A stretch of DNA of 32,007 nt, taken from the IMG/VR virus record IMGVR_UViG_3300011339_001074, positions 1 through 32,007 of that record. The stretch is one strand, 5' to 3'. Positions 4,551 through 32,007 of the stretch are shown piece by piece. This stretch comes from a virus (Duplodnaviria > Caudoviricetes). The number at the start of each line of letters is the position of its first letter. Within the stretch, counting starts at the first letter, position 1. The notes beneath the pieces are model-generated. The model did no database searches, was not told the DNA's origin, and saw only the letters and a program-made list of their open reading frames with translations. The position numbers and the translations under genes are program-made.

Positions 4551-5006
4551 TCAAGCGGTGAGCCCTGACCATGACCAGTCACATTCAAGTGTGAACGCGA
4601 GCTCAAGGATCATGTACTCCCTGGACGGAGTGGGCGTGCGCCTGGTCTCCATCCACTTGACTACCGCAAACGGGACGTTCGAGCGCCGGAGCATGACGGC
4701 CATGATCTTTTCTTCGATGTCGCCCGCAGCCAGCAGCGATTCAAACTGAGCCATGGGGCGGATCTGCTTCAGCACCGAGAGCGTCAGCGCGTGGACCACG
4801 CGGGCGGAGTCCTCGCCGCCCTCGCGATACAGCTGGGTGTCCGCGCTCTGAATCGCCATGCAGTAGCTGTTGTCCACGAGGGACTTGGGGAGGTCGCCGG
4901 CGCTGAACAGAGCGGGCGAGCGTTTGAGTCCAGTCCCACACAGCACCGCGTCCACTTGCGTAAGCAAGCTCCGGAGCGTGTGGTCTTGGCGCTCGCGGAC
5001 GCTCAC
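4551..5006 (-). CDS. Putative tail terminator / head-tail joining protein
   Basis: 151 aa, alpha/beta pattern, immediately upstream of the tube gene (synteny). Confidence 0.45.
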   Translation of the reverse strand: MSVRERQDHTLRSLLTQVDAVLCGTGLKRSPALFSAGDLPKSLVDNSYCMAIQSADTQLYREGGEDSARVVHALTLSVLKQIRPMAQFESLLAAGDIEEKIMAVMLRRSNVPFAVVKWMETRRTPTPSREYMILELAFTLECDWSWSGLTA

Positions 5007-5896
5007 GACCCGCCCAGTCCGATCACAACGACGGAGCCAGCCACTCCGGGGTTAGCAGCTCCACCAGTGCCTACCGGGGTGCCAACGGCTCCACCGTTTG
5101 CTTGGATAATGCCACAGGACGCCACCGGGGTGTCGGTGATCAGGAACACGATCCCGCCGCCGCCGCCGCCGCCACCAGATGCGCTGCCACCGCTCGAGGT
5201 CGAAGCGTTGCCACCGGCGCCACCGTTGGCTGAGATGCGCCCAGCGTTGGTCACGGCCTTGGCAGCGACCCAGCAGATGCCGCCGCCAGAACCGCCACCG
5301 CCGGACGAGGTGGTGGTAGCCGAGGAGCAGCCACCAGAGCCACCGCCCGCGCCGCCAGTCCACGCCGTTCCGGCTGCGGAGCGACCCTGTAGCCAGTTGC
5401 CCCACGGGCCTTGGTTGGCTGCTGTAGCCGTGCCCGCACTTCCGCCAGCCTGTGCCCCAGACGTGCCGCCCGCGCCGCCCGCAGGTAGGGCGTTCGCGTT
5501 GTTGAGCGCAGCTGCGCTGCTGGCCGATCCCCCTGCTCCGCCGCCAACGGTATTGATCACGCCGCCCGCGCCCGCGCCGGTCAGCCCACGACAGGAGCTA
5601 CCACCCGTGAGCGCACCGCCGGCGGTGCTCCCGCTCGCGGCGTTGCCATCGTCGTGGACGCTGCCAGAAGCGGAGATCGTCAGGGTGCCAGCTACATGCA
5701 GCTTCCAGCCCGCGGTACGGAGTGATCCCGTGCCTTGAATGGTCACATTCTGATAGTAGCTGTCTTTGGTTAGGCTGATAGGAGTGGCGGTTGGGACGAC
5801 AAGATCCCCCATGCTCCCCGGGCCGTACATCTGAGACATGAACCCGGTGGGAAGGCCGCTACTTGCCGCCGCGCCGGAAGTCTGTGACCAGCTCAT
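5003..5896 (-). CDS. Glycine-rich virion protein
   Basis: 297 aa with repeated GGAGGGSGG, GGGGSGGGI, ISANGGAGG and GGGGGGGGIV tracts. Confidence 0.7.
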   Translation of the reverse strand: MSWSQTSGAAASSGLPTGFMSQMYGPGSMGDLVVPTATPISLTKDSYYQNVTIQGTGSLRTAGWKLHVAGTLTISASGSVHDDGNAASGSTAGGALTGGSSCRGLTGAGAGGVINTVGGGAGGSASSAAALNNANALPAGGAGGTSGAQAGGSAGTATAANQGPWGNWLQGRSAAGTAWTGGAGGGSGGCSSATTTSSGGGGSGGGICWVAAKAVTNAGRISANGGAGGNASTSSGGSASGGGGGGGGIVFLITDTPVASCGIIQANGGAVGTPVGTGGAANPGVAGSVVVIGLGGS

Positions 5897-7838: not shown

Positions 7839-8094
7839 CGAACGCCGCCTTGGCCAAAGCGGCCTTGACTTTGGAGCGGTCCGCGGGCTTGATGTCCTTC
7901 ATGGTGGCTGGCATCTCCATCTCCATCTCGTGCTCCGCGGGCTCGGAGATCTCTTCCACGCCGGCCTCGAGCTGGGCCATGGTGAAGGTCATCTCATTCC
8001 CGTCCGCGTCCACGACGGTGTACGCGTCGGCGGGTCCAGACACGGTGTACTCAACACCGTCAACGGTCACAAGGTCGCCAGAAGAATAAGGCAT
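7831..8094 (-). CDS. Acidic hypothetical protein (87 aa)
   Basis: Fits the operon; GC3-biased codons. Confidence 0.65.
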   Translation of the reverse strand: MPYSSGDLVTVDGVEYTVSGPADAYTVVDADGNEMTFTMAQLEAGVEEISEPAEHEMEMEMPATMKDIKPADRSKVKAALAKAAFGG

Positions 8095-13278: not shown

Positions 13279-13754
13279 GCGGATTGTTTCCGGGCAGCCA
13301 ACGCGTCCGAGAGGACGTCCGCCGGGATGGACGCCAGCGCGGTGATCAGCTCCTCGCGGGTTTGGTACGGCTCCACCGGCTCGGCTTGCTGAACAAACCG
13401 TGACTCCGAGCGGCCATACATCATGGGGTAGCGACGCTCGAGCATCCACGCCGCAGCCGGCCACGTTCCGTTCCGGGCGGCGTTGGTCACGGTGGCCAGC
13501 ATCTCCACAGCGCACGCGCCTTCCGCGTCGGCGAGCTCGGCGGCCACGCCCTGCCACTCGGGGTCTCCGTTCTTCGCTCTGTTCTGCGCATCGAAGTACA
13601 CGCTGGGAGCGATCCCCGCGTACTTGCACGCAAGCTCAATCGTGGCGCCAGTCCGGATCGCGTCACACAGCCGGGCGAGGATCGCCGGGTTCAGCAGCTT
13701 GGGCTTGGGGCCGGGCTTGCCTCTTTTCTTGTCTACGGATTCTCCGTCGTTCAC
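13275..13754 (-). CDS. terS: Terminase small subunit (159 aa)
   Basis: HTH-like AIRTGATIELACKYAGI and WPAAAWMLERRYP; immediately upstream of terL; GAGG RBS before GTG 13754. Confidence 0.75.
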   Translation of the reverse strand: MNDGESVDKKRGKPGPKPKLLNPAILARLCDAIRTGATIELACKYAGIAPSVYFDAQNRAKNGDPEWQGVAAELADAEGACAVEMLATVTNAARNGTWPAAAWMLERRYPMMYGRSESRFVQQAEPVEPYQTREELITALASIPADVLSDALAARKQSA

Positions 13755-13852
13755 GCGCACCTCGAGGAGTCCGCGCACAACGACCGGCGGTCCCTCAGGG
13801 TAGTCCGAGCAGCCTCCCCCGTCAACCGGTGAGCGCCCGGAATGAACTCTGT

Positions 13853-14100
13853 AGCTTGAAAGGTGATCAACACGATCAACACGGATCAACACGGTGATCA
13901 ACACGGGCTTCTGGAGCTTGAAAGGTGATCAACACGATCAACACCGTTTTTCTATACGTATAGGGAGTAGCGGGGGGGAAGTGTTTTTCTTTTTTCCCCC
14001 CCGCGGGACTGTAGGGGTTGAGAAACTCGTTTTGCCTGTTGATCTGTTGCGCATGATTCCGAGTACTTACGTACCCCCCCTCTGTTGATCGGTGTTGATC
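13853..14100. repeat. Probable replication origin: converging GATCAACA(C) iterons around a palindrome, hairpin and T-rich core
   Basis: Six direct GATCAACAC copies (13865-13944) and three inverted TGTTGATC (14037-14100). Exact 30-bp duplication at 13853-13882 and 13915-13944. Palindrome CTATACGTATAG at 13952-13963. 11-bp stem GCG7AA/TTC7GC at 13970-14004. Confidence 0.65.
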
Positions 14101-14111
14101 GCCGGTTCGGT

Positions 14112-14370
14112 GTGTCCACAACGTGTCCACAACGTGTCCACAACGTGTCACGTTCTGGCCTCTGGAGTCGTGACACGGTGTGTCCACAACGTGTCCACAA
14201 CGTGCGCCCCACGCTCCAGAAGGTGTGACACGGTGTGTCCATGTTGTGTCCACAACGTGACACGGTACCGCTTCACCGCTTGACACGTTGTGTCCATGTT
14301 GTGTCCACAACGTGTCTGGACTGTCGACGCCCGCCGGGGTACAATGTGTCCATGTTGTGTCCACAACGTG
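14112..14370 (+). repeat. Phased GTGTCCA(CAAC/TGTT) array
   Basis: Eight GTGTCCACAAC plus three GTGTCCATGTT copies in five clusters starting at 14112, 14180, 14235, 14290 and 14346. Confidence 0.9.
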
Positions 14371-14398
14371 TCTCGCATTCTTGACCAAAGGAACCTCC

Positions 14399-14659
14399 AT
14401 GTCGAACCCTGCCACGCTCCACGTCCGCTTCCAGCCCGTGGTCCGCCACGAGCTCAAGGCCATGTCCGACCAGTCGGGCCTCGCTGAATCCCAAGTCCTC
14501 ACGCTGCTGGTCCGGCTGGCCTTCCGCGGCGCGATCCCGGGACTGGAAGCCCTTCGGCCCGTCCCATTCCCGCAGTTGCTCCAGACGGGCCTCCCCGACG
14601 TCGACAACGACGACGAGGACGAGCTGGCGGACGACGATCCAGACATGCCGCCGTTCTAA
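14399..14659 (+). CDS. Ribbon-helix-helix DNA-binding protein with acidic C-terminal tail (86 aa)
   Basis: AAAGGA RBS. TLHVRF-QP-VVRHELKAMSDQSG-LAESQVLTLLVRLAF fits the Arc/CopG strand-helix-G-helix pattern. Tail DNDDEDELADDDPDMPPF. Confidence 0.7.
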   Translation: MSNPATLHVRFQPVVRHELKAMSDQSGLAESQVLTLLVRLAFRGAIPGLEALRPVPFPQLLQTGLPDVDNDDEDELADDDPDMPPF

Positions 14660-17103
14660 GCCTTGCGCCAGACACGCAAGCCCCGGAACCCTGCGGGGCT
14701 TGCCTTCTCCACCCACCCCATGCGAACGAGGATCGCGCGGACTCGGCTGGACGCTGCGGCGGTCCGCTGACCGATGTCCAACCCTATGGCGTTGAGGACG
14801 TCCGATGTTGAGAACGTGGCCAGCACGCCCTCGTTCTCCACGTACGCGCCCACCGGCGAGGTCCACGAGTCCTCAATCTGGTACTGCTGGGCGTCCTCCT
14901 CGCGGATCTTGTCCTCCTCGCGGGTGAACCACCAGACCTCCCCGGATTCGTATGCCTCAAGCGCGTCCGCCCACACCGCGTCCCGGAGCTCGCGAAGCCG
15001 TTGGATCGGGATCACGTGCTTGGCCGGGATCGTGAGGATCCAGAACCGCCGCGAGCCGCTGGGGTCTGACAGGAACGCCGCGGTCCCGCCGGCGCCACCG
15101 ACCGGGTTCACCGACCCACACAGCACGGTGTGACGTGGAGACAGGATCGCCGCCCTGGCGAATGGTGGCCGGTAGAGATCCTTCCGCGTGCCCAGGAACT
15201 GTTTGACGGACTCCGCGGAGCGCTTGCTGGTCAAGTCCTCGAGCTCCGCGGCTTCGTAGCCCCACACGCGGGACATCATGATCGCGGCGTCCTTGTTTCC
15301 GATCGGGATCGGGCTGTCACCAAAGAACTCCCCGAACAACCCTTCAAAAAAGCTGCTTTTCTTTGCGCCCTGTTCGCCCACGAGGACCAGCGCGGTGTCC
15401 GCCTTGCATCCCGGCTCAAGCGCTCGAGCGACCGCGGAGATCAGAAACCGTCCCACCATGGCCGCTTGCATCTCGGTGGGCTCGAGGATCCCCAGCACCT
15501 CGCGGAGCAGCTGGCCCACCGTGTCACCGCTTGCCTTCCCTCGGACGGACTCCAGATAGTCCTTCACCGGCGAGTACATGCGCCCCGCGGCCACCGCGTA
15601 CAGCGCGGTTTTGGCCATGACTTCACCCGCGTCCAAGCCGTAGCTGTCCCGCAGCCACTCGCATAGGTCCGCGGTCCCCGGGCCCTCCTCGAGCTCCGCG
15701 CCCTCGACCTCGACCACGCCACCGAGCGTGGAGCAGCGGAGCGACGCGTACCGCGGGTCCGCGCGGAGGATCGTCACGATGTTCGCATACGTCGCTTTGA
15801 CGGAGCCCTCCTCCGTCTTTGCCAGTCTGGATAAGATCGCGGTCCGCTCCTTCCCCACGGCTTGGCCGCGTGTGGCCTGTCTGGCCGTGCGCTCCTCGGT
15901 CCGGAGCTTGTCCTGGCTGACCTTAACGGAGCGCTTCAGATTCCGGACATGCTCGCCCATCCCGCCCGCAGCTTCGGCGGCGCCGATCCACGTCGTCCAC
16001 TCCACCTCGTTGGCTTCGGCAACCTCCACCAGCAGGTCCACCGAGCCGGTGAGCTCGCGGACCAGCTCGAGCCGCTGCGGCCTCGCCGTCGCTTCATCGT
16101 ACAGCACAGCCAGCGCCCGCGCCAGAAGCTTACGCCCTTGGTCCAGCTTCGTGGGCGCCACGGCCTCGTCCACCACGTCGACGTCCGCGGCCTCCTCCTG
16201 TGGCGCGGCCTCGGAGCGCGTGGGCCGGATGATCGTGGGCTGCGGGCGCTCGGGGACACTGAGCGGGAGCTTCTGGCCGTAGCCCAGTCCGTCCCGCACT
16301 GTCCGCCGGACCTCGCTGGCTGGCTTGCCACAGCCCTCGCCGGCGGCGATCAACTGGGACTCCGCGTCATGGATTGAGATCCCCGCGGACACGAGGTAGC
16401 CGCCCACGGTCCGAGCTTGCGCGAGGAGCACGCCGTGACGCTCGCCCGTCGTGGCGCCGGCGATCTTGGCCACCGCGTTCCGGAGCACGGCCTGACCGAA
16501 CCCCGCGCCGGCTTCGGCCTTGGGAGGTGGTGGAGCGGCGCGGCGCTCCTCTGGCGCCTTGCTCACGAACCGTACCAGCCAGTCTGGAGCGTCCGCGATC
16601 TGCGCCTTGTTGGCCCACGCGTAGGCCGCGCCGGTCTCGGGGTGAACGCTCGGGACGGCCACGATGTACCCGCCGTCCGAGCGGACGTCCAAGCCCTTCC
16701 CGCCGATCTTGTTTCGCGTCAACAGCTTCAGCCCGTTGGCTTTCTGCCACGCCACGAGCTCCGGACCGTAGCGGTACACGTAGTGGAGCCCACCGCCTCC
16801 CGTGCGGACGGTCAGGGTTTCGCGGTACGGACGTCCCGCCGCGGCGAGCTCCACGCGCTCCTCCGCGTCCGTGTCCGAGTCCAGATCCAACACCCAGATC
16901 CCAGACCCGTACTCGGCGGTGTTGCCTGTCCGGATCCCGATGTTCGACGTGGGCCACCGAGCCCACCACTTCACCAACTGCTCCACGTCGCCGGTGGCCT
17001 CGAGGAACCCGTGCGTCCCCGCGTGTGGGATCTTGCCGTCCAGCGGGAACACGCGCCAGCCTTTGGCCACGTAGGCTTTGGCCACCTTGAGGAGCTGGCT
17101 CAT
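14656..17103 (-). CDS. Bifunctional Prim-Pol primase fused to a VirE/VapE-type P-loop helicase (815 aa)
   Basis: N-terminal NIGIRTG, VLDLD, TGGGGLHYVY, GLDVRSDGGYIVAVPSVH. C-terminal LVGEQGAKKSSFF, YRPPF, DPSGSRRFW. ATG 17103 overlaps the helicase TGA. Confidence 0.9.
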   Translation of the reverse strand: MSQLLKVAKAYVAKGWRVFPLDGKIPHAGTHGFLEATGDVEQLVKWWARWPTSNIGIRTGNTAEYGSGIWVLDLDSDTDAEERVELAAAGRPYRETLTVRTGGGGLHYVYRYGPELVAWQKANGLKLLTRNKIGGKGLDVRSDGGYIVAVPSVHPETGAAYAWANKAQIADAPDWLVRFVSKAPEERRAAPPPPKAEAGAGFGQAVLRNAVAKIAGATTGERHGVLLAQARTVGGYLVSAGISIHDAESQLIAAGEGCGKPASEVRRTVRDGLGYGQKLPLSVPERPQPTIIRPTRSEAAPQEEAADVDVVDEAVAPTKLDQGRKLLARALAVLYDEATARPQRLELVRELTGSVDLLVEVAEANEVEWTTWIGAAEAAGGMGEHVRNLKRSVKVSQDKLRTEERTARQATRGQAVGKERTAILSRLAKTEEGSVKATYANIVTILRADPRYASLRCSTLGGVVEVEGAELEEGPGTADLCEWLRDSYGLDAGEVMAKTALYAVAAGRMYSPVKDYLESVRGKASGDTVGQLLREVLGILEPTEMQAAMVGRFLISAVARALEPGCKADTALVLVGEQGAKKSSFFEGLFGEFFGDSPIPIGNKDAAIMMSRVWGYEAAELEDLTSKRSAESVKQFLGTRKDLYRPPFARAAILSPRHTVLCGSVNPVGGAGGTAAFLSDPSGSRRFWILTIPAKHVIPIQRLRELRDAVWADALEAYESGEVWWFTREEDKIREEDAQQYQIEDSWTSPVGAYVENEGVLATFSTSDVLNAIGLDIGQRTAAASSRVRAILVRMGWVEKASPAGFRGLRVWRKA

Positions 17104-19037
17104 GTTGTCACCTTCCGCGCGCACGCGCCCCACGCGGCGCCACTGGACGGGTTTTCGCTCTGCTTGATCAAACGGACGCCCACGCCCTCACAGCCTTGAG
17201 GTCCGCTGAACACGTCGAACGCGTCCTTGTCGTGGGTACAGACCTCCTCCGCCTGGTACTGACTGACCGCGAACCGAATGGCGTTGGCTGTGAGCCGGGA
17301 CCACGTGTCGCCCTTCCGCTTTTCTCGAGCCATACAATACAGCACCTCGCCGCCGCGCACGAGCGCGATGGACGCGTTCTCCTTGTTCATGGCGCCGGTG
17401 ACGTACACCGGGATCGGCTGACCCGGCGGGACCAACACAGGCATGAACGCATCTGCGCAGGGGACGCGGATCGCCATGCTCGGACGCCATTGAGCCGGGA
17501 GCTTCCCGGCGCGGGCGGCGTCTTTGAGCCCGCTCAAAATATCGATCATGTCGCAGACTATGCCCTTGGTGAGATTCGGGCATGTCAGGAGTTGCTGGAG
17601 AGCGGCGGAATGTTCGAGACAGACCGCCCGGATCATGCCTTTCAGCTTCTCCAGATACGCGGATTGTTTGGCGCTCGGAGCGTGCTCCCGCCACAGTCGT
17701 CCCGCCGGCTGCTTCGTGTCCTTGGCCAGCCCTTCCGCGAGGAGCGCCAGCCGGATCTCCCGCACGTAACGACCCAGCGCCGTGGTCCTCGCCGCTTGAA
17801 TCTGCTCCGCGGGGCGTTCGTTGTCCTTGCACTCCGCATCCTCCGCGTTCTCCTCGGCGAGCTCGAGCGCCTCCGGCTCCGAATCGTTGAACAGCAAACC
17901 GAGCGCGTCCGCGTACGTCAGCTGGAACTCTCCGAACAAGTCATTCGGGTCCAGCACCTTGGCCACTGTCTTTCCGGGGCTGGCTCGGAGCACGCGGCCC
18001 ACCTCCTGAATGAACCGGACGCGAGACCGAACGCGCCGCCGCAGACAGATCCAACGGAGCCACGGAAAGTCGACGCCCTCCACCAGCATGGAGACATGTA
18101 CAATCATGTCCAGCCCACCAGAGCGGAGCGCCTCCACGGTCTCGGCCTTATCCTGAGCGCCCATCCGGCTGTGGAGTGGACGGGCCTTGAACCCTGCGGC
18201 CTCAAGGACCGCGCAGTAGTCCTCCGCGTCCTGAATGGTCGACGCGTTGACCACGCCCGGACCACGCTCTGGTCCGAGCTCGCGGATCATCGTTATGCAC
18301 GCCTCGTCCGTGTCCGCGCTCGTCCTGGTCTCGTCCCACGGGATGATCTGGAAGTCAACGATCGCGCCGTCCCGCATGGCTTCGGCTGGTGGATACCGGT
18401 ACGTCACGGTGTCGAACAACTGGATCGTGGCCTTGTGGTGCGAACGGAACGGCGTGGCGGTGAAGCCCAGACGGGCCCTGCTGGGGAACCCGGCGCGCTC
18501 CACGTCGACGTCCACGCCCACCCCGAACGTGGCGCACTCCGTTTTGTGGCACTCGTCCGCGATCCAGAGGTCGACCACAATCCCGTGAGTGGCGAGGTGT
18601 TGAGCGAGCGCGACCGCGGACGGGTTGCAGCAAACGATCACCTGACGTCCACCCTGCTTGTGGTGGGTGTACCACTTGCCGACCATGCCCGGCGGGAGCC
18701 ACGCGCTGAAGGTCTCAGCGAGCTGGTCCACGAGTCGAATGGACGGGGCTGTGACCACCACGCGAGCGTCCGGGTAGTCCAGCAGGTACAGCCGGAGGAT
18801 CTCCGCCTGTAGAATGGACTTACCGGCGCCCGTGGTGGCCGCGATCACGCCAGCCCGGTGGGCGTAGATGGAGCAGAGCGCCGCGGGAAGCGCCTCGCTC
18901 TGCCACTTGCGGAGCTTGGGGTTCTGGGCGAACGAGTTGAGCCGGTCCCACTCCACTGTGGAGTCAAGGTTGAGAGCAGCCAAGGAGGACGCACTGGGCG
19001 CGTCAAAGAGCGCGCAGAGCGCGGGATAGTCAATCAT
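17100..19037 (-). CDS. Superfamily 2 (DExH, ResIII-like) helicase with C-terminal extension
   Basis: WQSEAL, AATTGAGKS, IADECH, GFTATP, MLVEGVDFP, FIQEVGRVLR. Confidence 0.92.
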   Translation of the reverse strand: MIDYPALCALFDAPSASSLAALNLDSTVEWDRLNSFAQNPKLRKWQSEALPAALCSIYAHRAGVIAATTGAGKSILQAEILRLYLLDYPDARVVVTAPSIRLVDQLAETFSAWLPPGMVGKWYTHHKQGGRQVIVCCNPSAVALAQHLATHGIVVDLWIADECHKTECATFGVGVDVDVERAGFPSRARLGFTATPFRSHHKATIQLFDTVTYRYPPAEAMRDGAIVDFQIIPWDETRTSADTDEACITMIRELGPERGPGVVNASTIQDAEDYCAVLEAAGFKARPLHSRMGAQDKAETVEALRSGGLDMIVHVSMLVEGVDFPWLRWICLRRRVRSRVRFIQEVGRVLRASPGKTVAKVLDPNDLFGEFQLTYADALGLLFNDSEPEALELAEENAEDAECKDNERPAEQIQAARTTALGRYVREIRLALLAEGLAKDTKQPAGRLWREHAPSAKQSAYLEKLKGMIRAVCLEHSAALQQLLTCPNLTKGIVCDMIDILSGLKDAARAGKLPAQWRPSMAIRVPCADAFMPVLVPPGQPIPVYVTGAMNKENASIALVRGGEVLYCMAREKRKGDTWSRLTANAIRFAVSQYQAEEVCTHDKDAFDVFSGPQGCEGVGVRLIKQSENPSSGAAWGACARKVTT

Positions 19038-19130
19038 GTTGTTCTCCGACCGCCGGCGGAGGGGGCCAGTGAATCTGGCCCCCGCTCAGGGAGCAACTCC
19101 TGAGCGCCAACGGCCTGAAGATCGTATCAC

Positions 19131-19174
19131 GAAAACGGAAAAGGGCTGGTCTGGGAACAACACCAGACCAGCCC
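19131..19174 (-). terminator. Intrinsic terminator upstream of the helicase gene
   Basis: Perfect 12-bp stem GGGCTGGTCTGG/CCAGACCAGCCC with 8-nt loop, followed on the minus strand by TTTTCCGTTTTC. Confidence 0.7.
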
Positions 19175-19182
19175 AGACCGGA

Positions 19183-19227
19183 ACCCTTGGCCACGTAGGC
19201 TTTGGCCACCTTCAGGAGCTGACTCAT
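19183..19227 (-). pseudogene. Duplicate of the first 15 codons of the primase gene (MSQLLKVAKAYVAKG)
   Basis: 41/45 identical to 17059-17103, all four differences synonymous. Embedded in track ORF 19030..19293, whose remainder crosses the hairpins and may not be a real protein. Confidence 0.8.
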
Positions 19228-19335
19228 ACGGCCACGCAGACGGTCGGGAGCGCAGGGGAACGCTTGCTGGACGGCTTCGGGCAGGGGCTTCATGGTTTGA
19301 TCTCTATTTAGTTTGGTTCAGCTATGGGGTTTGGT

Positions 19336-20815: not shown

Positions 20816-20988
20816 AGAAACCTCCAGAGGTTCCGTATCGTGGCGCGGTACGTTGTCCAGAGTCTCCGGGAATGTTTACAGATTCGGAAAAAAACATTCC
20901 GGAATGTCTGGACACCTACGCGGTGACCGGGTAAGTATCTGGTGTCGGGAATGAACCCGGCAACATCGAAGCACAACGAGAGAACAAC
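20816..20988. promoter_or_regulatory. Divergent control region with palindromic operator-like sites
   Basis: Perfect palindrome ACATTCCGGAATGT at 20894-20907; extra GGAATG half-sites near 20869 and 20948; lies between divergent operons. Confidence 0.65.
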
Positions 20989-21285
20989 ATGATGCAAGCC
21001 CCCACTGAGATCCTCCTTGCCCTTGCCCGGCTCCATGCCGCGGCCCACGAGCTCCGCACCGCACTGGAGACCGAGCGCGACAACGCCCAGATTGACTACG
21101 ACCGCCTCGCAGCCCTGCCCGGTGGACTCGGCAACGACCACACCGCGATGCTTCTTCAGCTTGCCGACGAGCGCGGCTACCTCGCACGCCGCGCCTTGCG
21201 CAACGCGTTCGGAGGCTTTGCCGGTCAGGTCGTCACTCCGCAGCCGGAAGATCTGGGCTACGAAGCTGTAACGGTGATCGCATGA
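20989..21285 (+). CDS. Hypothetical protein, first gene of the early operon (98 aa)
   Basis: GAGAGAACAAC before ATG; stop overlaps the next ATG. Confidence 0.7.
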   Translation: MMQAPTEILLALARLHAAAHELRTALETERDNAQIDYDRLAALPGGLGNDHTAMLLQLADERGYLARRALRNAFGGFAGQVVTPQPEDLGYEAVTVIA

Positions 21286-22100: not shown

Positions 22101-22547
22101 ATGGCTTTCAATCCCAACGCATTCCCCGAAAAGACCAAGGCCACCAGTGGTGGCGGCTCACGCATGATCGCGCCCGGCAAACACCGGGTGACTATCGAGA
22201 ACGTGGAGTGGGACGGTCCCCGCGATCAACTTGTCGTGACGTTCAGCAACGGCGACGCCACGATCCGGGGCTGGTACCCGGTGGAAGGTACTCGTGGGTT
22301 CGTGACGGCGAACTTGCTCCGCGCCGTGGGGTGGAACGCGGAGTTTGAGCCCTCGGACTCGAACAGCCGGAATCACGTGCTGCTTGGTCAGGAGCTCCAG
22401 ATCGTAGTGGAGACCTCGGAGTACGCTGGCAAGGTCCGGACTCAGGTCCGGTGGACGAATCGCCTTCCGGGTCTGGCTGACCGGTCAGTTGCTGACCAGC
22501 CCGCGCCGGCTCCCGCGTTGTTTGGGGACGACGAGCTTCCGTTCTGA
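22101..22547 (+). CDS. Phage ssDNA-binding protein, DUF669-like (148 aa)
   Basis: AAGGAG RBS; [13 protein letters not shown]; acidic C-terminus GDDELPF; follows the recombinase. Confidence 0.7.
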
Positions 22548-22623: not shown

Positions 22624-22977
22624 ATGACCCCTGATCAACTCAAAATCATCCTCGCAGCCCATGCGCTTTGGTGCGCCAATCCTACTACGGGACAACGCGC
22701 GAACCTGACCGGCGCGAACCTGGCCCGCGCGTACCTGACCCGCGCGTACCTGACCGACGCGAACCTATACGGCGCGAACCTGACCGACGCGAACCTGACC
22801 GGCGCGAACCTGACCGGCGCGAACCTGGCCCGCGCGTACCTGACCGGCGCGAACCTGACCGGCGCGAACCTGACCGGCGCGAACCTGACCGGAGCGAACC
22901 TGACCGGAGCGAACCTGACCCGCGCGGACCTGACCGGCGCAATTATCACTCTCGGCTGGCATTTGGTGCGCGTATGA
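22624..22977 (+). CDS. Pentapeptide repeat protein (117 aa)
   Basis: 16 A(N/Y/D)Lxx repeats after the common phage lead-in [11 protein letters not shown]; GGAG RBS. Confidence 0.9.
22699..22938 (+). repeat. 15-bp tandem coding repeat (gcgaacctgaccggc consensus, 16 copies)
   Basis: Directly visible; encodes the pentapeptide repeats. Confidence 0.9.
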
Positions 22978-26289: not shown

Positions 26290-28128
26290 TCATGTGTCAC
26301 GCAAGGGATCCGCGATGAACAGCAGCCGCACGCCGTCCAAACCGGTGCTGTCAATCTCGAGCTGCTCCACCAGCGCCACGCGCTTCACAAGCGACAGCTG
26401 CGGGTCCGAGACCGTGACCACTTGTCCGAGCTCGAGACCGTAGGACCGCGGAACCGTGTACGTCGCCCTCATCCGGGGCTGGCTGAACGCTCGGATCTTG
26501 TCCGCGAGGACACGTCCAGCCGTGGCGCTGTCGTAGATATTGGCGCTCGTGTATGCTCGGTTCTGAACCCTGAACACCGCCTGGGAGATTCGGCTGTACG
26601 CGTCCTGGCTTGGATCGTACGTGGTGGCGCCGGTGTCCACGGTGGAGCTCACCACGGGCTGGTCATTTGGGCGCCCGCCTCGCCAGATGGTCGACGTGTA
26701 TTTGCTGTGCTGGACGTCGTACTGGTACTGGAGTGAGCACTGGTTCACCACGTCCGAGTCAAAGTCAACGTCACCGACAAGCCGGATCGCGGAGTCCGTC
26801 GACACGTCCAAGGCCGCGGTGGCGTCCACCGCCGTGGCGTCCTGACGCCAGACCACCACGTACCAGCCGTCCACGCCATAGACGACACTGGCCGGGACGA
26901 ATGGCATGATCGCACTTTCCAGCCACTCGAGCGGCTTCACGCGGGAATCGATCACACAGTCGAACCGGTACAGGCTGAGCGCCTTGGCCGCGGTCAACAT
27001 GCGCCCGTAGTCGACCACCAGCCCGGCGCGCTCGAGCATGTACGTGATGATGTCACCGGCGAGGGGGGACAGACCTACGATTCCGTTTCCGGTGTACGTG
27101 GAGCTCGTGTACTCCCGCCACGCGGCAAACAGGCTCGAGGTGGTAGGCATTGTCACGGGGTTGGACGGAGTGGCCGCAGCCGGGACCACCGTGGACGGCT
27201 GGTACAGCGTGGGGTCCAGATTCGGGTTGAGGTCCGCCACGTTGGGACGCTTTTGCTCACCAAGTCCGTAGTAGTGCCCCGCGTTCTCGGGGTTGGCGTC
27301 CACGCCGTTCTGATTGTCCCCGGTGGAGTCCAGCACGTTCTTTGGCTCCACACCCAGCAGCCAGTCCACGCCTTCCCAGCACATAGCGACGGGCTGACCG
27401 AGGAGGTCAAACGTGTTGTAGATCGGGAACCGGTGGCCGTTGGGGTTGAGGTCCGCGTCCCCGGTCAGCGTCACCCACGTCCCGGTCACGTGGTGGCCAG
27501 CGAGGATCAGCCGGAGATAGTTGAGCGGTCCGCCGGCGCCCTCGCCCTGGTGAATCGCCCACACGCCTTGGGTAGCTGGGACCCACGTGGTGTTCCCCGT
27601 CTTACCCGGCGAGCCAAAGACCGTGGGGTACACCACACCGAGATCGTCCAAGCTCAAAGTCAGGACCGTGTTCTGGCCCACCGTGTCCCCGCTGATCTGT
27701 TGAGTGAGCGGCGGGTACTCCACCACGTACGTGGACTCTGGCAGCTGGATCGAGAACGAGACCGGATCGCCGGCGAACCGCCAACTGGGACCGGTCACGA
27801 TCCCGTTGATCAGAACCGTCCGCTGGCTGTAGTCGGTGCCCTCGAGCCAAACCGAGAGCGTGGCCGGGCTGCGGGCGAGGTGCCAGCCCTCGGCGTACAG
27901 CTGCGCCACGTCGACGGGAAGCACGGCCTGAACCGGTACGGACGCTCCCGCCGGCGCCGCGGCAAGGAACGACATGGCCTGTTGCATGGTCACGTTGTCG
28001 AACCCGGATTCAAACGTGAGCGTGTCCCCCGTCGACGCGTCGGGCACGTCAAAGGACCCGTCTGAGATCCGATAGGTGGAGCTCGCGTATTGAAGCTCCA
28101 GAAGGACGTGGTAGCGCGGTGTGCTCAC
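26290..28128 (-). CDS. Tail tip / baseplate hub-like protein (612 aa)
   Basis: Second gene after the tape measure. C-terminal VNQCSLQY...LELGQVVTVSDPQLSL is typical of phage hub proteins. Confidence 0.6.
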   Translation of the reverse strand: MSTPRYHVLLELQYASSTYRISDGSFDVPDASTGDTLTFESGFDNVTMQQAMSFLAAAPAGASVPVQAVLPVDVAQLYAEGWHLARSPATLSVWLEGTDYSQRTVLINGIVTGPSWRFAGDPVSFSIQLPESTYVVEYPPLTQQISGDTVGQNTVLTLSLDDLGVVYPTVFGSPGKTGNTTWVPATQGVWAIHQGEGAGGPLNYLRLILAGHHVTGTWVTLTGDADLNPNGHRFPIYNTFDLLGQPVAMCWEGVDWLLGVEPKNVLDSTGDNQNGVDANPENAGHYYGLGEQKRPNVADLNPNLDPTLYQPSTVVPAAATPSNPVTMPTTSSLFAAWREYTSSTYTGNGIVGLSPLAGDIITYMLERAGLVVDYGRMLTAAKALSLYRFDCVIDSRVKPLEWLESAIMPFVPASVVYGVDGWYVVVWRQDATAVDATAALDVSTDSAIRLVGDVDFDSDVVNQCSLQYQYDVQHSKYTSTIWRGGRPNDQPVVSSTVDTGATTYDPSQDAYSRISQAVFRVQNRAYTSANIYDSATAGRVLADKIRAFSQPRMRATYTVPRSYGLELGQVVTVSDPQLSLVKRVALVEQLEIDSTGLDGVRLLFIADPLRDT

Positions 28129-31100
28129 AGCTCTTCCTCAATCAACAGGGTACCCATTCGGATCAACTCGCCGGCGCTGCCTGTCCACGCGTTGCCCACC
28201 ACCACGTCCATCTGGAGCGTATCGGACGCGATCCGCCCGTACAGCTGGAGCTCCTTAGCCGTGATCGTGGTCGCGATCCCGGCGCCGGCGGGGATCGGAA
28301 CTTTGGGGAGGTACACCACACAGTTTTCCCCGTCCTGTGCGATCAGCCCGAACATGTCGAACGGCGTGGCGCTCCAGTTGCCAACAACGGTCCCGCCCGT
28401 GTAGCTGGACACGTAGTCCGGACTCGCTTGGTGAAGCGAGGACGTGTCCACGCCATCCACCCAGTCCATAGACTCGGCGCGGCGCACCAGACCCTCTTTG
28501 GTCACGCGGCGCGTTCCGTCCTTGGCCTGTGTGATCTGAAGGTTCGTGGCGATACTGTGCTGTTCCCCGCGGGACGTGCGACGGGCAAACACCATGGCCG
28601 TACCCACGAAGAACTTCCCGATCTCAATGTAGCCGCTGGCTGTGATTGTCGGCGCCACAGTCAGCGTGAACGCGTTGGCCCCCGCGGCCACGTTCCGGAA
28701 CAGCACGGTCACGTCTGGAGACACGATGGAGCCCGCAGAGCCAGACGCCGCCTCGGTGCCGTCGACGTCCTCGAGGACCAACACGGGACGGAGCCCCACG
28801 CTCATCGTTGCCGTAGTCGACCAACGCCCGCCGGTGTTCCGGCTGATCGTCCGGATCTTCCCGCCGCCACCGAACTTGAACGTGGCGCCAGTCAGCGTGT
28901 TTTCGGGCAGGTAGTCCGTCACGTCGTTCCCACCGCTCGGATCGCACTGAATCATGGAGCCGGTCCGGGTGTACTTCAGCCCAGACCCGATCCGAAGGTC
29001 AATGGTGCGCGAGACCGCGCCGGCGATCGGGTCCACGTAGTCAAACGTGGCGGTGTCGAAGTTGCAGTTTCTCAAGCAGACGGCCATGATCCCGCCTTGG
29101 TGTTCGCCCGCCACCACCATGCTCACGCCCGCCGCCTGGTCGAATCGGCCACCAGACGCTGGGCTGGATCGTACCTGCGGGTTGGTGTTCACCGCGGGGT
29201 ACGGGAAGCTCGTGTCAATCTGCCACGTCGCACCGCTCGGGAACAGTCCGATCCCGGCGAGCTTCAGTCCGAGCTCGCCCACGAACGAGGTGGTGGAGAG
29301 CAGCGCCTGACCCAGCAGCCGGGACGTCAAGCCGGGGTTCCCGTCCGTGCCAACCGAGACCGTCCGCACGTAGCCGTCCGAGAGGTTGATCCCGTTCCCG
29401 CCGAACGCAAACGAAGCGCGGTCCGTGGTCACGTTGCCCGGCTGGACAATCGAGAACCCGGACTGGCCGGTGTACCACTCGTCCACGCCCTTCCCAACGC
29501 GCTTGATCGAAGTTGACCCAGCGGACAAGTACGTGACCAGCACGCGAGCCGTGGGGCCGGCGGGGTTGTGCTCATACAGCCATATCCGAAGACTCTGGAC
29601 GTCCGCAGTCTCGGTGTACAGCGTTGTCGGAGTACCCACACCGCCACCGTTCATGTCGGTGACGGTGATCGTGGTCGGGGTGCAACGAACGCGGACATCG
29701 TAGGACCGGGGCGTGGCGTCCCCGATTCGGGCGCGAAGCTCGAAGTAGCCGGAGTCCACACGGATCCCCCGGGCCTCAAGCCGGATCCCACCAGCCAGCG
29801 TACACGCCGGCGCGGAGGTCCAGTTGGCGACGTCCGCGAGCGTGGTGGCGAGGACGCGGAGTCCAAGCCCGGTCATGGTCACGCCGGGAGCGCCGGTGGT
29901 GCTGTACGTCCAGAGCGCGCCGGTGTTCTCGGGCAAGTTGATCGCGGCCCAGTTGGACCGGAACCCACTGGCTTGATTCGGGGTGGGGTCTTTGGTGCCC
30001 GTCTGGGGAAGCGGGTTCAACGTCAACCCACCAAGCGAGAACGTGATCAGCGAGGAGTCCGCCGCGTTGTTCACGCTGGCGTGAGCTTGTGCTACGCCCA
30101 CGATCCGCGAGCCCTGAGCGGTCATGGCGTAGTCGGTGAAGCTAGTCCCCGCGTCCACCGAGCGCCACCACGCAAGACCGGTACCCGGACCCACGCCCGT
30201 CCCAACGGTCGTCCACGTGATCCCGCCGTCCAAGCTCTGGTTCACGTACGCCTCGAGGAGCGCACCGCCCGCGGCGTCATGGTCCGAGCCGAACAGCCAG
30301 AGCGTCCCGGTGTCGTCGCCACACAGCGCGAGCTCGCCAGCGGTGAACCCGCCGCCACCACCCACCGAAGCCCACTCCTGAAGGTTGGTGGTGCTGGTCC
30401 CCAAAGCCGGGACTGCGCCAGCGAACCCGTCGAACGCGTTGGCAGAGCGGCGGACGTAGGGGACAAGCGTGGCGCTGGCTGTGGCTGCGTTGTCCGCGAT
30501 GTAGGCCAGCACGAACCCACCGTTCCAGCCAGCGACGTCCGCGAACCCCGCGTGGTCAATGGTCTGGATGTACTCGAGCGTCCCGCCAAGATCCGAACTG
30601 GCGTACATTCGGACGTCGTTGGCCGCTCCGTTGGCCACCGAGAGCGCGAGCGAGATCTGACCGTTCTGGTACGCGGCGCGCATCTGGTAGGACGTGTACG
30701 CGGTGACGTTGGCGCCCACGTACTGGGCCAGCGAGCGCGGCGCGGTAGTGGAGCTCGTGTCCTCGTCCGCAGCCGAACGCCAGGACAAGATCTCGCCGTT
30801 GGCGTCAATGCCGAACGCTACCCACCCACCGTCAGGCAGCGCCACGACAGCAGCCACGTTTTTGAGTGGCGTGGCAACAACGCCACCAGACGCAGGAGCC
30901 GAGTACATCGGAAGGTCCAGACGTGCCGCCCACGTCCCCGCAAGTGGCCTATGCCACACCGAGATGGACGCTGCGTTGTGGACGGCTACCGCGGTCATGG
31001 CGCCGGACGGGTGGGTACAGATGCTCATTCCGGTCCACTCGGTCGCCGTGGTCGAAAGCGACAGAATGTCCATGCCGGACAGCGAGGTGGGCGGATCTTG

Positions 31101-31436
31101 TCCCGCGGTCGGGAGGAGCAGCGCGGAGAGACCGGGATTCGGCGCGATGGTGATTCGAGGGTTCTCGGTCGTGGAGACCACGGTCACGGTTGGCCCAGCT
31201 CCAGGGACGCCCGTCAGGCTGGCCGTCGACGCTCCGTCCAACGTGCCCGACGCGTACAGGTTGCCATAGGCTGGACCTTGGACGGGGCTCCCGCCCGTCG
31301 ACGTCAACAGCGTCCGGACTGGTGGCGCCCAGGTCCCGCCGGTGGAGAGCGCCACCGTGTTCGTGCTGACCGCGCCCGAGGTTTGGCGCACAATCGCTTG
31401 ATACTGGGCGGGGTTGGTAGGGGTCCTGTCAGACAC
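28125..31436 (-). CDS. Large tail protein with Asp-box motifs (1103 aa)
   Basis: GGAGG RBS before GTG 31436 (MSDRTPTN). SSDLGGTLE and SLDGGITW are Asp-box-like. Thr/Gly/Ser-rich; directly after the tape measure. Confidence 0.7.
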   Translation of the reverse strand: MSDRTPTNPAQYQAIVRQTSGAVSTNTVALSTGGTWAPPVRTLLTSTGGSPVQGPAYGNLYASGTLDGASTASLTGVPGAGPTVTVVSTTENPRITIAPNPGLSALLLPTAGQDPPTSLSGMDILSLSTTATEWTGMSICTHPSGAMTAVAVHNAASISVWHRPLAGTWAARLDLPMYSAPASGGVVATPLKNVAAVVALPDGGWVAFGIDANGEILSWRSAADEDTSSTTAPRSLAQYVGANVTAYTSYQMRAAYQNGQISLALSVANGAANDVRMYASSDLGGTLEYIQTIDHAGFADVAGWNGGFVLAYIADNAATASATLVPYVRRSANAFDGFAGAVPALGTSTTNLQEWASVGGGGGFTAGELALCGDDTGTLWLFGSDHDAAGGALLEAYVNQSLDGGITWTTVGTGVGPGTGLAWWRSVDAGTSFTDYAMTAQGSRIVGVAQAHASVNNAADSSLITFSLGGLTLNPLPQTGTKDPTPNQASGFRSNWAAINLPENTGALWTYSTTGAPGVTMTGLGLRVLATTLADVANWTSAPACTLAGGIRLEARGIRVDSGYFELRARIGDATPRSYDVRVRCTPTTITVTDMNGGGVGTPTTLYTETADVQSLRIWLYEHNPAGPTARVLVTYLSAGSTSIKRVGKGVDEWYTGQSGFSIVQPGNVTTDRASFAFGGNGINLSDGYVRTVSVGTDGNPGLTSRLLGQALLSTTSFVGELGLKLAGIGLFPSGATWQIDTSFPYPAVNTNPQVRSSPASGGRFDQAAGVSMVVAGEHQGGIMAVCLRNCNFDTATFDYVDPIAGAVSRTIDLRIGSGLKYTRTGSMIQCDPSGGNDVTDYLPENTLTGATFKFGGGGKIRTISRNTGGRWSTTATMSVGLRPVLVLEDVDGTEAASGSAGSIVSPDVTVLFRNVAAGANAFTLTVAPTITASGYIEIGKFFVGTAMVFARRTSRGEQHSIATNLQITQAKDGTRRVTKEGLVRRAESMDWVDGVDTSSLHQASPDYVSSYTGGTVVGNWSATPFDMFGLIAQDGENCVVYLPKVPIPAGAGIATTITAKELQLYGRIASDTLQMDVVVGNAWTGSAGELIRMGTLLIEEEL

Positions 31437-32007
31437 TGGAGATCCTCCGATTCTTGCGATGACCATATACCGCGCCGGAGTGGAGCGCCTCGCGGAGCAC
31501 GCCAGCGGACTCCATGGAGCGCTTCAACCCGGCCTCGAACACACGGTGTCCGAGAACAATAGGCGCCGGTCCTGTGGGCTGCTGGGCTTGCATCTGGCCG
31601 TTGTTCATGCGCTCGATCTGACGTGAACCCATAGCAGCCGCGGCGGTTGAGTTGAGCACGGCCTCCTTCTTCAGAATGGTGGCTTGGAGCTCGTCCGGAG
31701 ACTTGCCGCTGTGGAAGCTGGGCTGCTCCGCCGCGATCGCCGCGATCTGAACGCCGCCAGCCACGCCCGCAGCGATAGCCGCCGCAGGTCCGATCACCAG
31801 ACCAGCCGGACCACCGACCTCAAGACCGTCGTTCAGTGCGTTGATCACCGCCATGGCCGTGGTGATCGCCGCCGCCGCGAGCTTGGCCGCCTTCGAGATC
31901 GCGAACGCTTCCTGGGCGTGCTTCTGCTGGTCCGCAATTCGGCGCGTGAGCTCACGTTTCTGGGCTTGGGTGTAGATCTCGTCGCCGGCGATCAACTGGC
32001 CCGTCCA
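31429..32007 (-). CDS. Tape measure protein, 3' part
   Basis: Same reading frame and peptide as bases 250-1. C-terminus QIAAIAAEQPSFHSG..PDELQATILKKEAVLN is typical of tape-measure ends. Confidence 0.8.
   Translation of the reverse strand, partial: WTGQLIAGDEIYTQAQKRELTRRIADQQKHAQEAFAISKAAKLAAAAITTAMAVINALNDGLEVGGPAGLVIGPAAAIAAGVAGGVQIAAIAAEQPSFHSGKSPDELQATILKKEAVLNSTAAAAMGSRQIERMNNGQMQAQQPTGPAPIVLGHRVFEAGLKRSMESAGVLREALHSGAVYGHRKNRRISSV
31758..32007. repeat. Terminal direct repeat, right copy
   Basis: Matches 1-250 with 12 substitutions. Confidence 0.95.

Follow-up and report, generated by a model that had tools for sequence, protein, structure and literature searches.

A putative ribbon-helix-helix protein with an SSB-type tail tip, encoded beside a phased repeat array and a predicted replication origin in a clade of uncultured tailed phages

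In the ParR-parC systems of R1, pSK41 and pB171, as described in the accessible text of one source (PMC5016525), an N-terminal ribbon-helix-helix (RHH) domain with an unstructured C-terminal tail is combined with tandem repeats set about one helical turn apart, which lie upstream of the promoter and overlap it. StbA-stbS of R388 and Par of pSK1 rely on one small DNA-binding protein and no NTPase; according to the available part of another source (10.1101/2022.04.29.490116), StbA is a PadR-like helix-turn-helix (HTH) protein of a conjugative plasmid, encoded next to oriT and stbB, whose repeats follow an 11-bp cycle in its own promoter region and whose C-terminal part is thought to reach a host partner. 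An acidic run with a terminal Pro-Phe on a flexible tail is a feature of the SSB tip (DDDIPF), DUF669 and Bas52_0087; DnaG, Pol III chi, PriA and ExoI are binding partners of the SSB tip (accessible part of PMC5872125), and phage OB-fold proteins copying it have been described (accessible parts of PMC13687109 and 10.64898/2026.04.29.721553). CopG (pMV158) and ORF56 (pRN1) are small RHH proteins encoded beside a replication gene and likely autoregulated.

The locus analyzed here resembles each of these systems in some respects. It lies in a stretch of phage DNA of 32,007 nucleotides (hereafter the window), for which an initial annotation, made from the letters alone, had proposed a one-protein maintenance system consisting of a repeat array and a solo RHH protein with an SSB-like tail. 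We find that the cassette is real and conserved, and that it is a variant of centromere-like RHH arrays which has not been described previously. The annotators knew of no system with this combination, and in the open-access literature (supplements aside) we likewise found no description of an RHH array binder with an SSB-like tip.

Phage genome and context of the RHH gene

The window is a tailed-phage genome encoding small and large terminase subunits, portal, tape measure and an M15 endolysin, as well as a ResIII helicase, RusA, one XRE protein, ERF and Gp157; an HK97-like capsid protein was assigned by its Atlas structure. Its ends (1-248 and 31758-32005) carry a common 248-bp repeat (95.6% identity), which gives a unit of approx. 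31,757 bp, and direct terminal repeats also occur in the close relative G006 (31,490 bp). These repeats support the view that the genome is apparently complete, against the IMG/VR classification of the window as linear and CheckV completeness values of 38% (window) and 37% (G006), low figures that we read as an artefact, no close reference being available. The 11 mismatches between the two repeat copies point to a contig assembled from two closely related strains, with the junction inside the tape-measure gene. For proteins P0098, P0103 and P0109 (also P0052), the longest contigs are 64,101 and 94,876 bp, i.e. about two and three genome units, and are possibly concatemer-like assemblies rather than products of integration.

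No partition motor was recognizable, as originally stated: ParA (PF13614) and tubulin/TubZ (PF00091) were found in none of four records (controls matched in 14/14 and 13/14 cases, respectively), and the actin-like families PF06406 and PF17989, for which the controls were weak, gave no match in the window (G000) or G006. Tyrosine integrase, resolvase and CI-type S24 peptidase were likewise not found in these two genomes, with positive controls.

Several other regions of the window were noted. A short ORF at 19030-19293 (minus strand) encodes the same 15 residues (MSQLLKVAKAYVAKG) as the primase N-terminus, through duplication, a recombination scar or an assembly artefact. Two large probable virion proteins (612 and 1113 aa), encoded between the tape-measure and lysis genes (26290-31466, minus strand), had no match in Pfam or PHROG. 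A 15-bp tandem repeat (22697-22940; 16.3 copies) between the SSB-like gene described below and Gp157 encodes a pentapeptide-repeat protein.

The RHH gene (14399..14659, plus strand) encodes the 86-aa protein P0001, which ends in DNDDEDELADDDPDMPPF. It starts 29 bp past the last GTG half-site of the array, is preceded by a ribosome-binding site, AAGGA (14388..14392, plus strand; AGGA or GGAA is retained in relatives), and converges on the gene of a Prim-Pol and VapE primase-helicase (14656..17133, minus strand; Pfam PF09250 and PF05272, PHROGs), the two stops overlapping by 4 nt (14656-14659). The gene, its tail, the gap and the overlap are as given in the initial annotation; its statement that this is the only plus-strand gene is true for approx. 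1-20,900, a plus-strand operon beginning at 20,989. None of nine long plus-strand shadow ORFs scanned from approx. 1-20,900 matched PHROGs. A 256-aa antisense frame (13876-14646, minus strand) in register with the primase stop was set aside as read-through; it is open in six of eight loci and broken in L008 and L011.

P0001 matched no family in PHROGs, Pfam, NCBIfam or PADLOC at a passing score. The AF2 model, built from 17 sequences, contains helices at residues 13-26 and 30-43 and a low-confidence tail, which places the RHH domain at the N-terminus and the tail at the C-terminus. The top Foldseek match is CopG (prob 0.99, E 0.33, TM 0.8 by target), followed by Arc, ORF56 and antitoxin RHHs, and the top rows of a wide VIA fold search are RHH proteins (Z up to 5.4). 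The model thus superposes on RHH structures. The scores are modest (E above 0.3, Z no higher than 5.4), which is usual for a domain of 45 residues, and the strand is not formed in the monomer model; the fold predicted from these models is consistent with the RHH N-terminus originally suggested. The homodimer prediction scored 0.38 (mark 0.42). ESM Atlas returned unnamed clusters (0.92-0.93) and RHH_1/RHH_3 clusters (0.91), which served as a lead only, and an AsnC-type HTH (weak rows of a PDB sequence search, best E 0.027) was set aside in favour of the fold searches.

The family comprises one cluster at 50% identity plus P0018/P0019, 76 proteins in all, and is narrow, being restricted to one clade of uncultured phages. 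A profile search of 1.84 billion representatives found two proteins; no relatives were present in INPHARED, PLSDB or GTDB contigs, and a locus search with P0018 found no locus. Longer or fused forms were not seen among 8000 candidates, which counts weakly against their existence. One locus (L013) was a chance match and was dropped.

The phased array and its two specificities

The array (14112..14375) consists of five blocks (14112-14152, 14169-14209, 14224-14264, 14279-14319 and 14335-14375) of GTGTCCA(C/T) sites in 11-bp steps. Eleven copies of this motif occur within 270 bp, against a maximum of three in 200 first-order Markov simulations of the window. Each block has four positions, with two full sites inside and mostly half-sites outside, and the blocks repeat with a period of 57/55/55/56 bp. 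The 8-bp sites are pseudo-palindromic, and either orientation is found on the single lattice, which fits a dimeric binder. There are four or five blocks per locus. Seven loci have a block period of 54-57 bp and L011 one of 56-67 bp, corresponding to five or six lattice steps; the L011 blocks are spaced 67, 66 and 56 bp, two of these intervals being one lattice step longer.

A predicted sigma-70-type promoter (TGGACT-17-TACAAT; 14317..14345, plus strand) has its -10 hexamer at the start of block 5, and the sites downstream of it cover the start region of the RHH gene. A TA-x-x-x-T hexamer occupies the same place in all six aligned loci and in all eight block displays. The other four blocks lie upstream of the -10, which is more than an operator needs. 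No array sites occur at the control region of the primase operon.

In RHH strands, alternate residues face the DNA. The predicted DNA-reading beta-strand of P0001 (14414..14431, plus strand) reads T6-L-H8-V-R10-F (allele A), and the corresponding segment of allele B is R-F-N-V-R-F. Among the 76 family proteins, 41 carry LH(V/I)RF and 23 carry FNVRF, the N-terminus being missing from 12, so that the A/B counts are taken over 64 proteins. Near-duplicate loci were counted once (L002/L007 as L001, L009 as L005, L010 as L006; L012 is nearly L011), which left eight distinct loci. In all six with LHVRF (window, L001, L003, L004, L008 and L011) the sites are of GTGnnCAC type, and in both with FNVRF (L005 and L006, which are 81% alike) they are GTACATAC/GTCTGTAC on the same lattice. 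No mixed case was found among the eight (Fisher p 0.036, with loci that are not independent of one another), an indirect indication that specificity resides in the beta-strand residues, as in the RHH superfamily.

When the window was compared with a B genome, the alignment failed at 14114-14417, with 95% identity in the left flank and 88% in the right. Judged from these alignments, the array, promoter, ribosome-binding site and strand are exchanged together as a single unit between an origin and a protein body that remain in place, which points strongly to binding of the array by the protein, as proposed in the initial annotation. Linkage, the array being adjacent to the strand, explains part of the co-variation. 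In L011, whose protein belongs to a divergent group, both the A sites and the A strand are retained despite an identity to the window of only approx. 60% over the upstream 260 bp (B arrays, 56-58%). In a tree of 60 protein bodies, from which the strand was left out, there were 14 label changes (shuffled mean, 16.4); B as one clade was rejected (p-AU 3e-49), four identical bodies were common to A and B, and both alleles were found on several protein backgrounds. P0016 and P0069 are divergent members of B type.

The recognition region of the XRE protein and the XRE operator are similar in the two genome types, which makes the cassette the variable specificity element. A long imperfect palindrome (20855-20915) lies in the control region from which the XRE gene and the ERF operon diverge. 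It is conserved in A and B genomes and is likely the XRE operator; no CI-type gene is present at this place.

We also considered whether the array might be a cluster of host DnaA boxes, the RHH gene being incidental. The actinobacterial DnaA box is TTGTCCACA, from which GTGTCCACA differs by one mismatch, and the window contains eight nTGTCCACA copies at 11 bp or multiples of it. The strict box, however, occurs in none of the eight loci, the relatives carry GTGGCCAC or reversed GTGGACAC on the same lattice, and the array changes together with the RHH strand. The B arrays, which contain no such box, largely refute this explanation, and we regard it as extremely improbable.

A degenerate 11/55-bp repeat scan returned 43 viral loci but no third allele: five belong to the known family, and the others are either simple tandem repeats or matches by chance, none of them with a gene of this kind.

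The predicted origin, the acidic tail and their possible function

A second array, of GATCAACAC repeats (13865-14101), which was missing from the first description, surrounds an AT-rich core. The predicted origin (13848..14101) comprises six iterons (13865-13944), the core and three inverted copies (14037-14101). We infer that it is likely a primase-type origin, because many distant VapE primase genes have iteron-like repeats just beyond their stops. It is 95% identical between A and B genomes, and a scan for the origin pattern returned already known contigs only. The array had been placed beside the origin, and the predicted origin indeed abuts it: the conserved inverted iteron and the first array site are 29 bp apart in seven of eight loci, of both A and B type; in L011 the gap is 39 bp and the helical phase is kept. 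This fixed distance favours an origin-linked role, although the 29-bp spacing may reflect shared descent, only L011 being an independent test.

In some relatives an optional 93-109-aa gene (product starting MQTRLFPLT) lies between the origin and terS (L001 3150-3479, L005 4159-4440, L011 886-1215, L020 85-414); the window, L003, L004 and L006 lack it, and its occurrence does not follow the A/B type.

The sister phages L027 and L028 match the window in their structural genes (73% terminase identity) and in the order of their early genes, but encode a different VapE (approx. 34% identical) and have primase, origin and terS in succession without the cassette. It was also found in none of the distant VapE loci examined. 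VapE origins therefore work without the cassette, which belongs to this replication module and is not a general accessory of such origins. The module itself is exchangeable in this phage group, since L026 (93% terminase identity) has at this place (181-2789), before terS, what we take to be a DnaB-like helicase gene and a gene with a ParB-like N-terminal domain. Furthermore, a presumed HicA-HicB-like convergent pair follows the VapE primase and iterons in L050 (5632-6236) and L051 (approx. 4750-5350), so that in other elements the origin-side slot can be occupied by maintenance-type cassettes.

The position of the cassette, between the primase stop and the origin and convergent with the primase, together with the absence of a minus-strand terminator-like site from 13700-14800, would suit a barrier to transcription or to replication forks: transcripts running leftward from the primase operon would be halted at the bound lattice and the convergent promoter, short of the origin and late genes, or replication would be made one-directional. 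We consider this quite improbable, as a separate promoter is predicted for the late operon on the left side of the origin (TTGACG-17-TACCCT; 13797..13825, minus strand), outside the array and similar in L027 and L028, the cassette-less relatives manage without a barrier, and the conserved PF tail would be left unexplained. Repression of the late operon was also set aside, since array sites are absent from its predicted promoter. In phages with three different replication modules, a conserved element of the form ACCGCC-GT-GT-GTGCG comes after the predicted late promoter, TTGACG...TACCCT or TACCAT (window 13770-13825, minus strand; L027 approx. 1205-1285; L028 approx. 7930-8000; L026 approx. 1520-1560), possibly a pause or antitermination site.

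The acidic, low-confidence tail (14597..14656, plus strand) ends in DMPPF, like an SSB C-terminal tip. Each of the 76 family proteins has a terminal PF preceded by an acidic run, with at least five D/E in the last 15 residues (DMPPF 47, TMPPF 26, DGIPF 2, MMPPF 1), and the most distant member, P0019, ends in DDGIPF. The co-occurrence of array and terminal PF, for which the initial annotation had called for a survey, thus extends to all eight distinct loci with DNA. Over the eight loci the last eight codons contain three synonymous-only columns and no amino-acid-variable column, and the linker diverges freely while the terminal PF stays invariant, so that conservation is at the protein level. 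DMPPF differs from the canonical DDIPF, but it falls within the range of five natural SSB tips taken from genomes (DDDIPF twice, DDEIPF, DEDVPF and DDEPPF; PPF and IPF endings are both natural), which may not be those of the host. In the window and 72 loci, the only ORFs with an acidic-PF end belong to the RHH family and to a phage SSB-like family.

An RHH protein with an acidic disordered C-terminus is also the build of an antitoxin, and many antitoxins are among the fold neighbours. That the protein is an orphan type II antitoxin or anti-defence protein, autoregulated by chance, is nevertheless very improbable: the RHH gene ends on the primase stop in all loci, none of which has an adjacent co-transcribed toxin gene, and with the array upstream there is no room for a second gene in the unit. 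There is likewise no match to a toxin-antitoxin or PADLOC family, and variation of the linker around a fixed terminal PF is not in keeping with this role.

The SSB-like member in the window (22101..22547, plus strand), next to ERF, is modelled as an OB fold and ends in DDELPF (AF2 mean pLDDT 54; Foldseek match PrgE, E 1.5e-5). Because the genome encodes such a protein, the partner of the RHH tail could be one of the phage's own proteins, and the SSB-like protein may rival, or share, the partners of the tail. Its existence also bears on an explanation in which the array is only an oversized operator or reservoir and the tip of the free protein titrates, in trans, a host SSB partner, such as ExoI, or a defence sensor. 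The promoter inside block 5 would fit this; moreover, the accessible parts of two sources tie phage SSB-like proteins with an FDDDIPF tip to SbcB-linked defence (10.64898/2026.04.29.721553) and propose prophage DUF669 proteins as tip mimics (PMC13687109). Such a decoy would need neither four or five phased blocks nor a fixed place beside the origin, it leaves two balanced specificities unexplained, and the phage already has a protein with such a tip; we therefore consider it improbable.

The reading that we tentatively prefer, at somewhat less than an even chance, is an autoregulated origin-side scaffold whose SSB-type tails recruit replication proteins and which forms two exclusion groups. 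One predicted RHH dimer would very probably occupy each 8-bp site, reading it through the beta-strand, with up to approx. 20 positions on the 11-bp lattice; we infer this step from the co-variation and the symmetry of the sites. Autorepression through block 5, by which the protein dose would be matched to the array, is likely. The acidic-PF tip would probably, if with less assurance, enter the SSB-tip pockets of host proteins (of the Pol III chi, PriA, DnaG or ExoI type) or of the phage helicase, ERF or primase. The outcome, the weakest step, would be that replication factors are loaded or kept at the primase origin. Protein made by a resident genome would, in addition, fill the array of any same-type phage that enters the cell, silencing it and interfering with its origin, and on this proposal A and B may be two exclusion groups kept in balance as the rarer type escapes.

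A bolder reading, possible if doubtful, is that the RHH lattice serves as a one-gene, motor-less genome-positioning device, a multivalent false SSB cluster on double-stranded phage DNA. It would capture the SSB-partner network of the host, so that the phage circle rides with or commandeers host forks, and a few N-terminal residues plus the array would form a swappable address defining exclusion groups.

The main rival of the scaffold, with the same physical complex and a different outcome, is motor-less partition, the central idea of the initial annotation. The array would be a centromere, the RHH protein its binder, and the tails would link the phage circle to proteins of the host replisome or on the chromosome, giving plasmid-like inheritance; A and B would then be partition incompatibility groups, and parC is reported to express incompatibility. 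The build resembles that of ParR, with the RHH domain N-terminal, the tail unstructured and the repeats upstream of and around the promoter (accessible text of PMC5016525), the 11-bp cycle is that of stbS, single-protein systems exist (available part of 10.1101/2022.04.29.490116), and neither integrase or resolvase nor motor was found. We nevertheless regard this outcome as unlikely. There is no sign of a carried state, no CI-type S24 protein having been found in the window or G006 and no RHH relative in GTDB, PLSDB or INPHARED; the cassette is missing from the sister clade, whose early genes are arranged in the same order; and a centromere needs no fixed spacing to an origin iteron. Of the interpretation originally offered, the predicted fold, the binding, the origin-side position, the tail and the lack of a motor are thus supported, and of the refuting outcomes named there, none that was open to checking was encountered, whereas a segregation or maintenance outcome is not established, and the maintenance claim is weakened by the absence of CI, resolvase and integrase and by the cassette-less sister phages.

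If the scaffold reading is true, a mobile element brings the SSB interaction network to a chosen double-stranded site. For motor-less centromere-like arrays, the host partners of StbA are an open question in the available part of the source (10.1101/2022.04.29.490116); the tail described here suggests a partner class, SSB-tip-binding proteins being the candidates for an RHH adaptor tail. The natural A/B pair supplies its own controls for specificity and would provide two small DNA-binding modules that are orthogonal to each other.

Comparison with described systems

The features shared with SSB, DUF669 and Bas52_0087 are confined to the tip, which here sits on a predicted sequence-specific binder of double-stranded DNA and not on an OB-fold protein that binds single-stranded DNA. 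CopG and ORF56, the closest folds, are encoded by genes co-transcribed with the rep gene. The phage RHH gene is instead convergent with the primase gene, its product has a 40-residue tail and its array extends over approx. 265 bp; with no array sites at the control region of the primase operon, the arrangement is not that of a co-transcribed rep repressor.

Among partition systems, type Ib (ParF-ParG, delta-omega) differs in having a Walker-type ParA and a flexible N-terminal tail preceding a C-terminal RHH domain, and type III (TubZRC) in having a tubulin-like TubZ. With type II (ParMRC) the cassette has in common the binder, the tail and the promoter repeats, but the RHH unit contains neither an actin-like ParM in the same operon nor any second gene, there is no sequence match, the tail is acidic with a PF end, and the array forms four or five phased blocks abutting a primase origin in a tailed phage. 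With the StbA-like class it has in common a single binder, no NTPase and promoter repeats on an 11-bp cycle; the fold neighbours, however, are RHH proteins and not the PadR-like HTH, the site lies beside a vegetative origin, the tip is SSB-like, and stabilization of a replicon in dividing cells belongs to the description of the StbA-like class. The RHH cassette is therefore a member of neither the ParR nor the StbA class, as it has no ParM and carries an RHH domain in place of the HTH of StbA.
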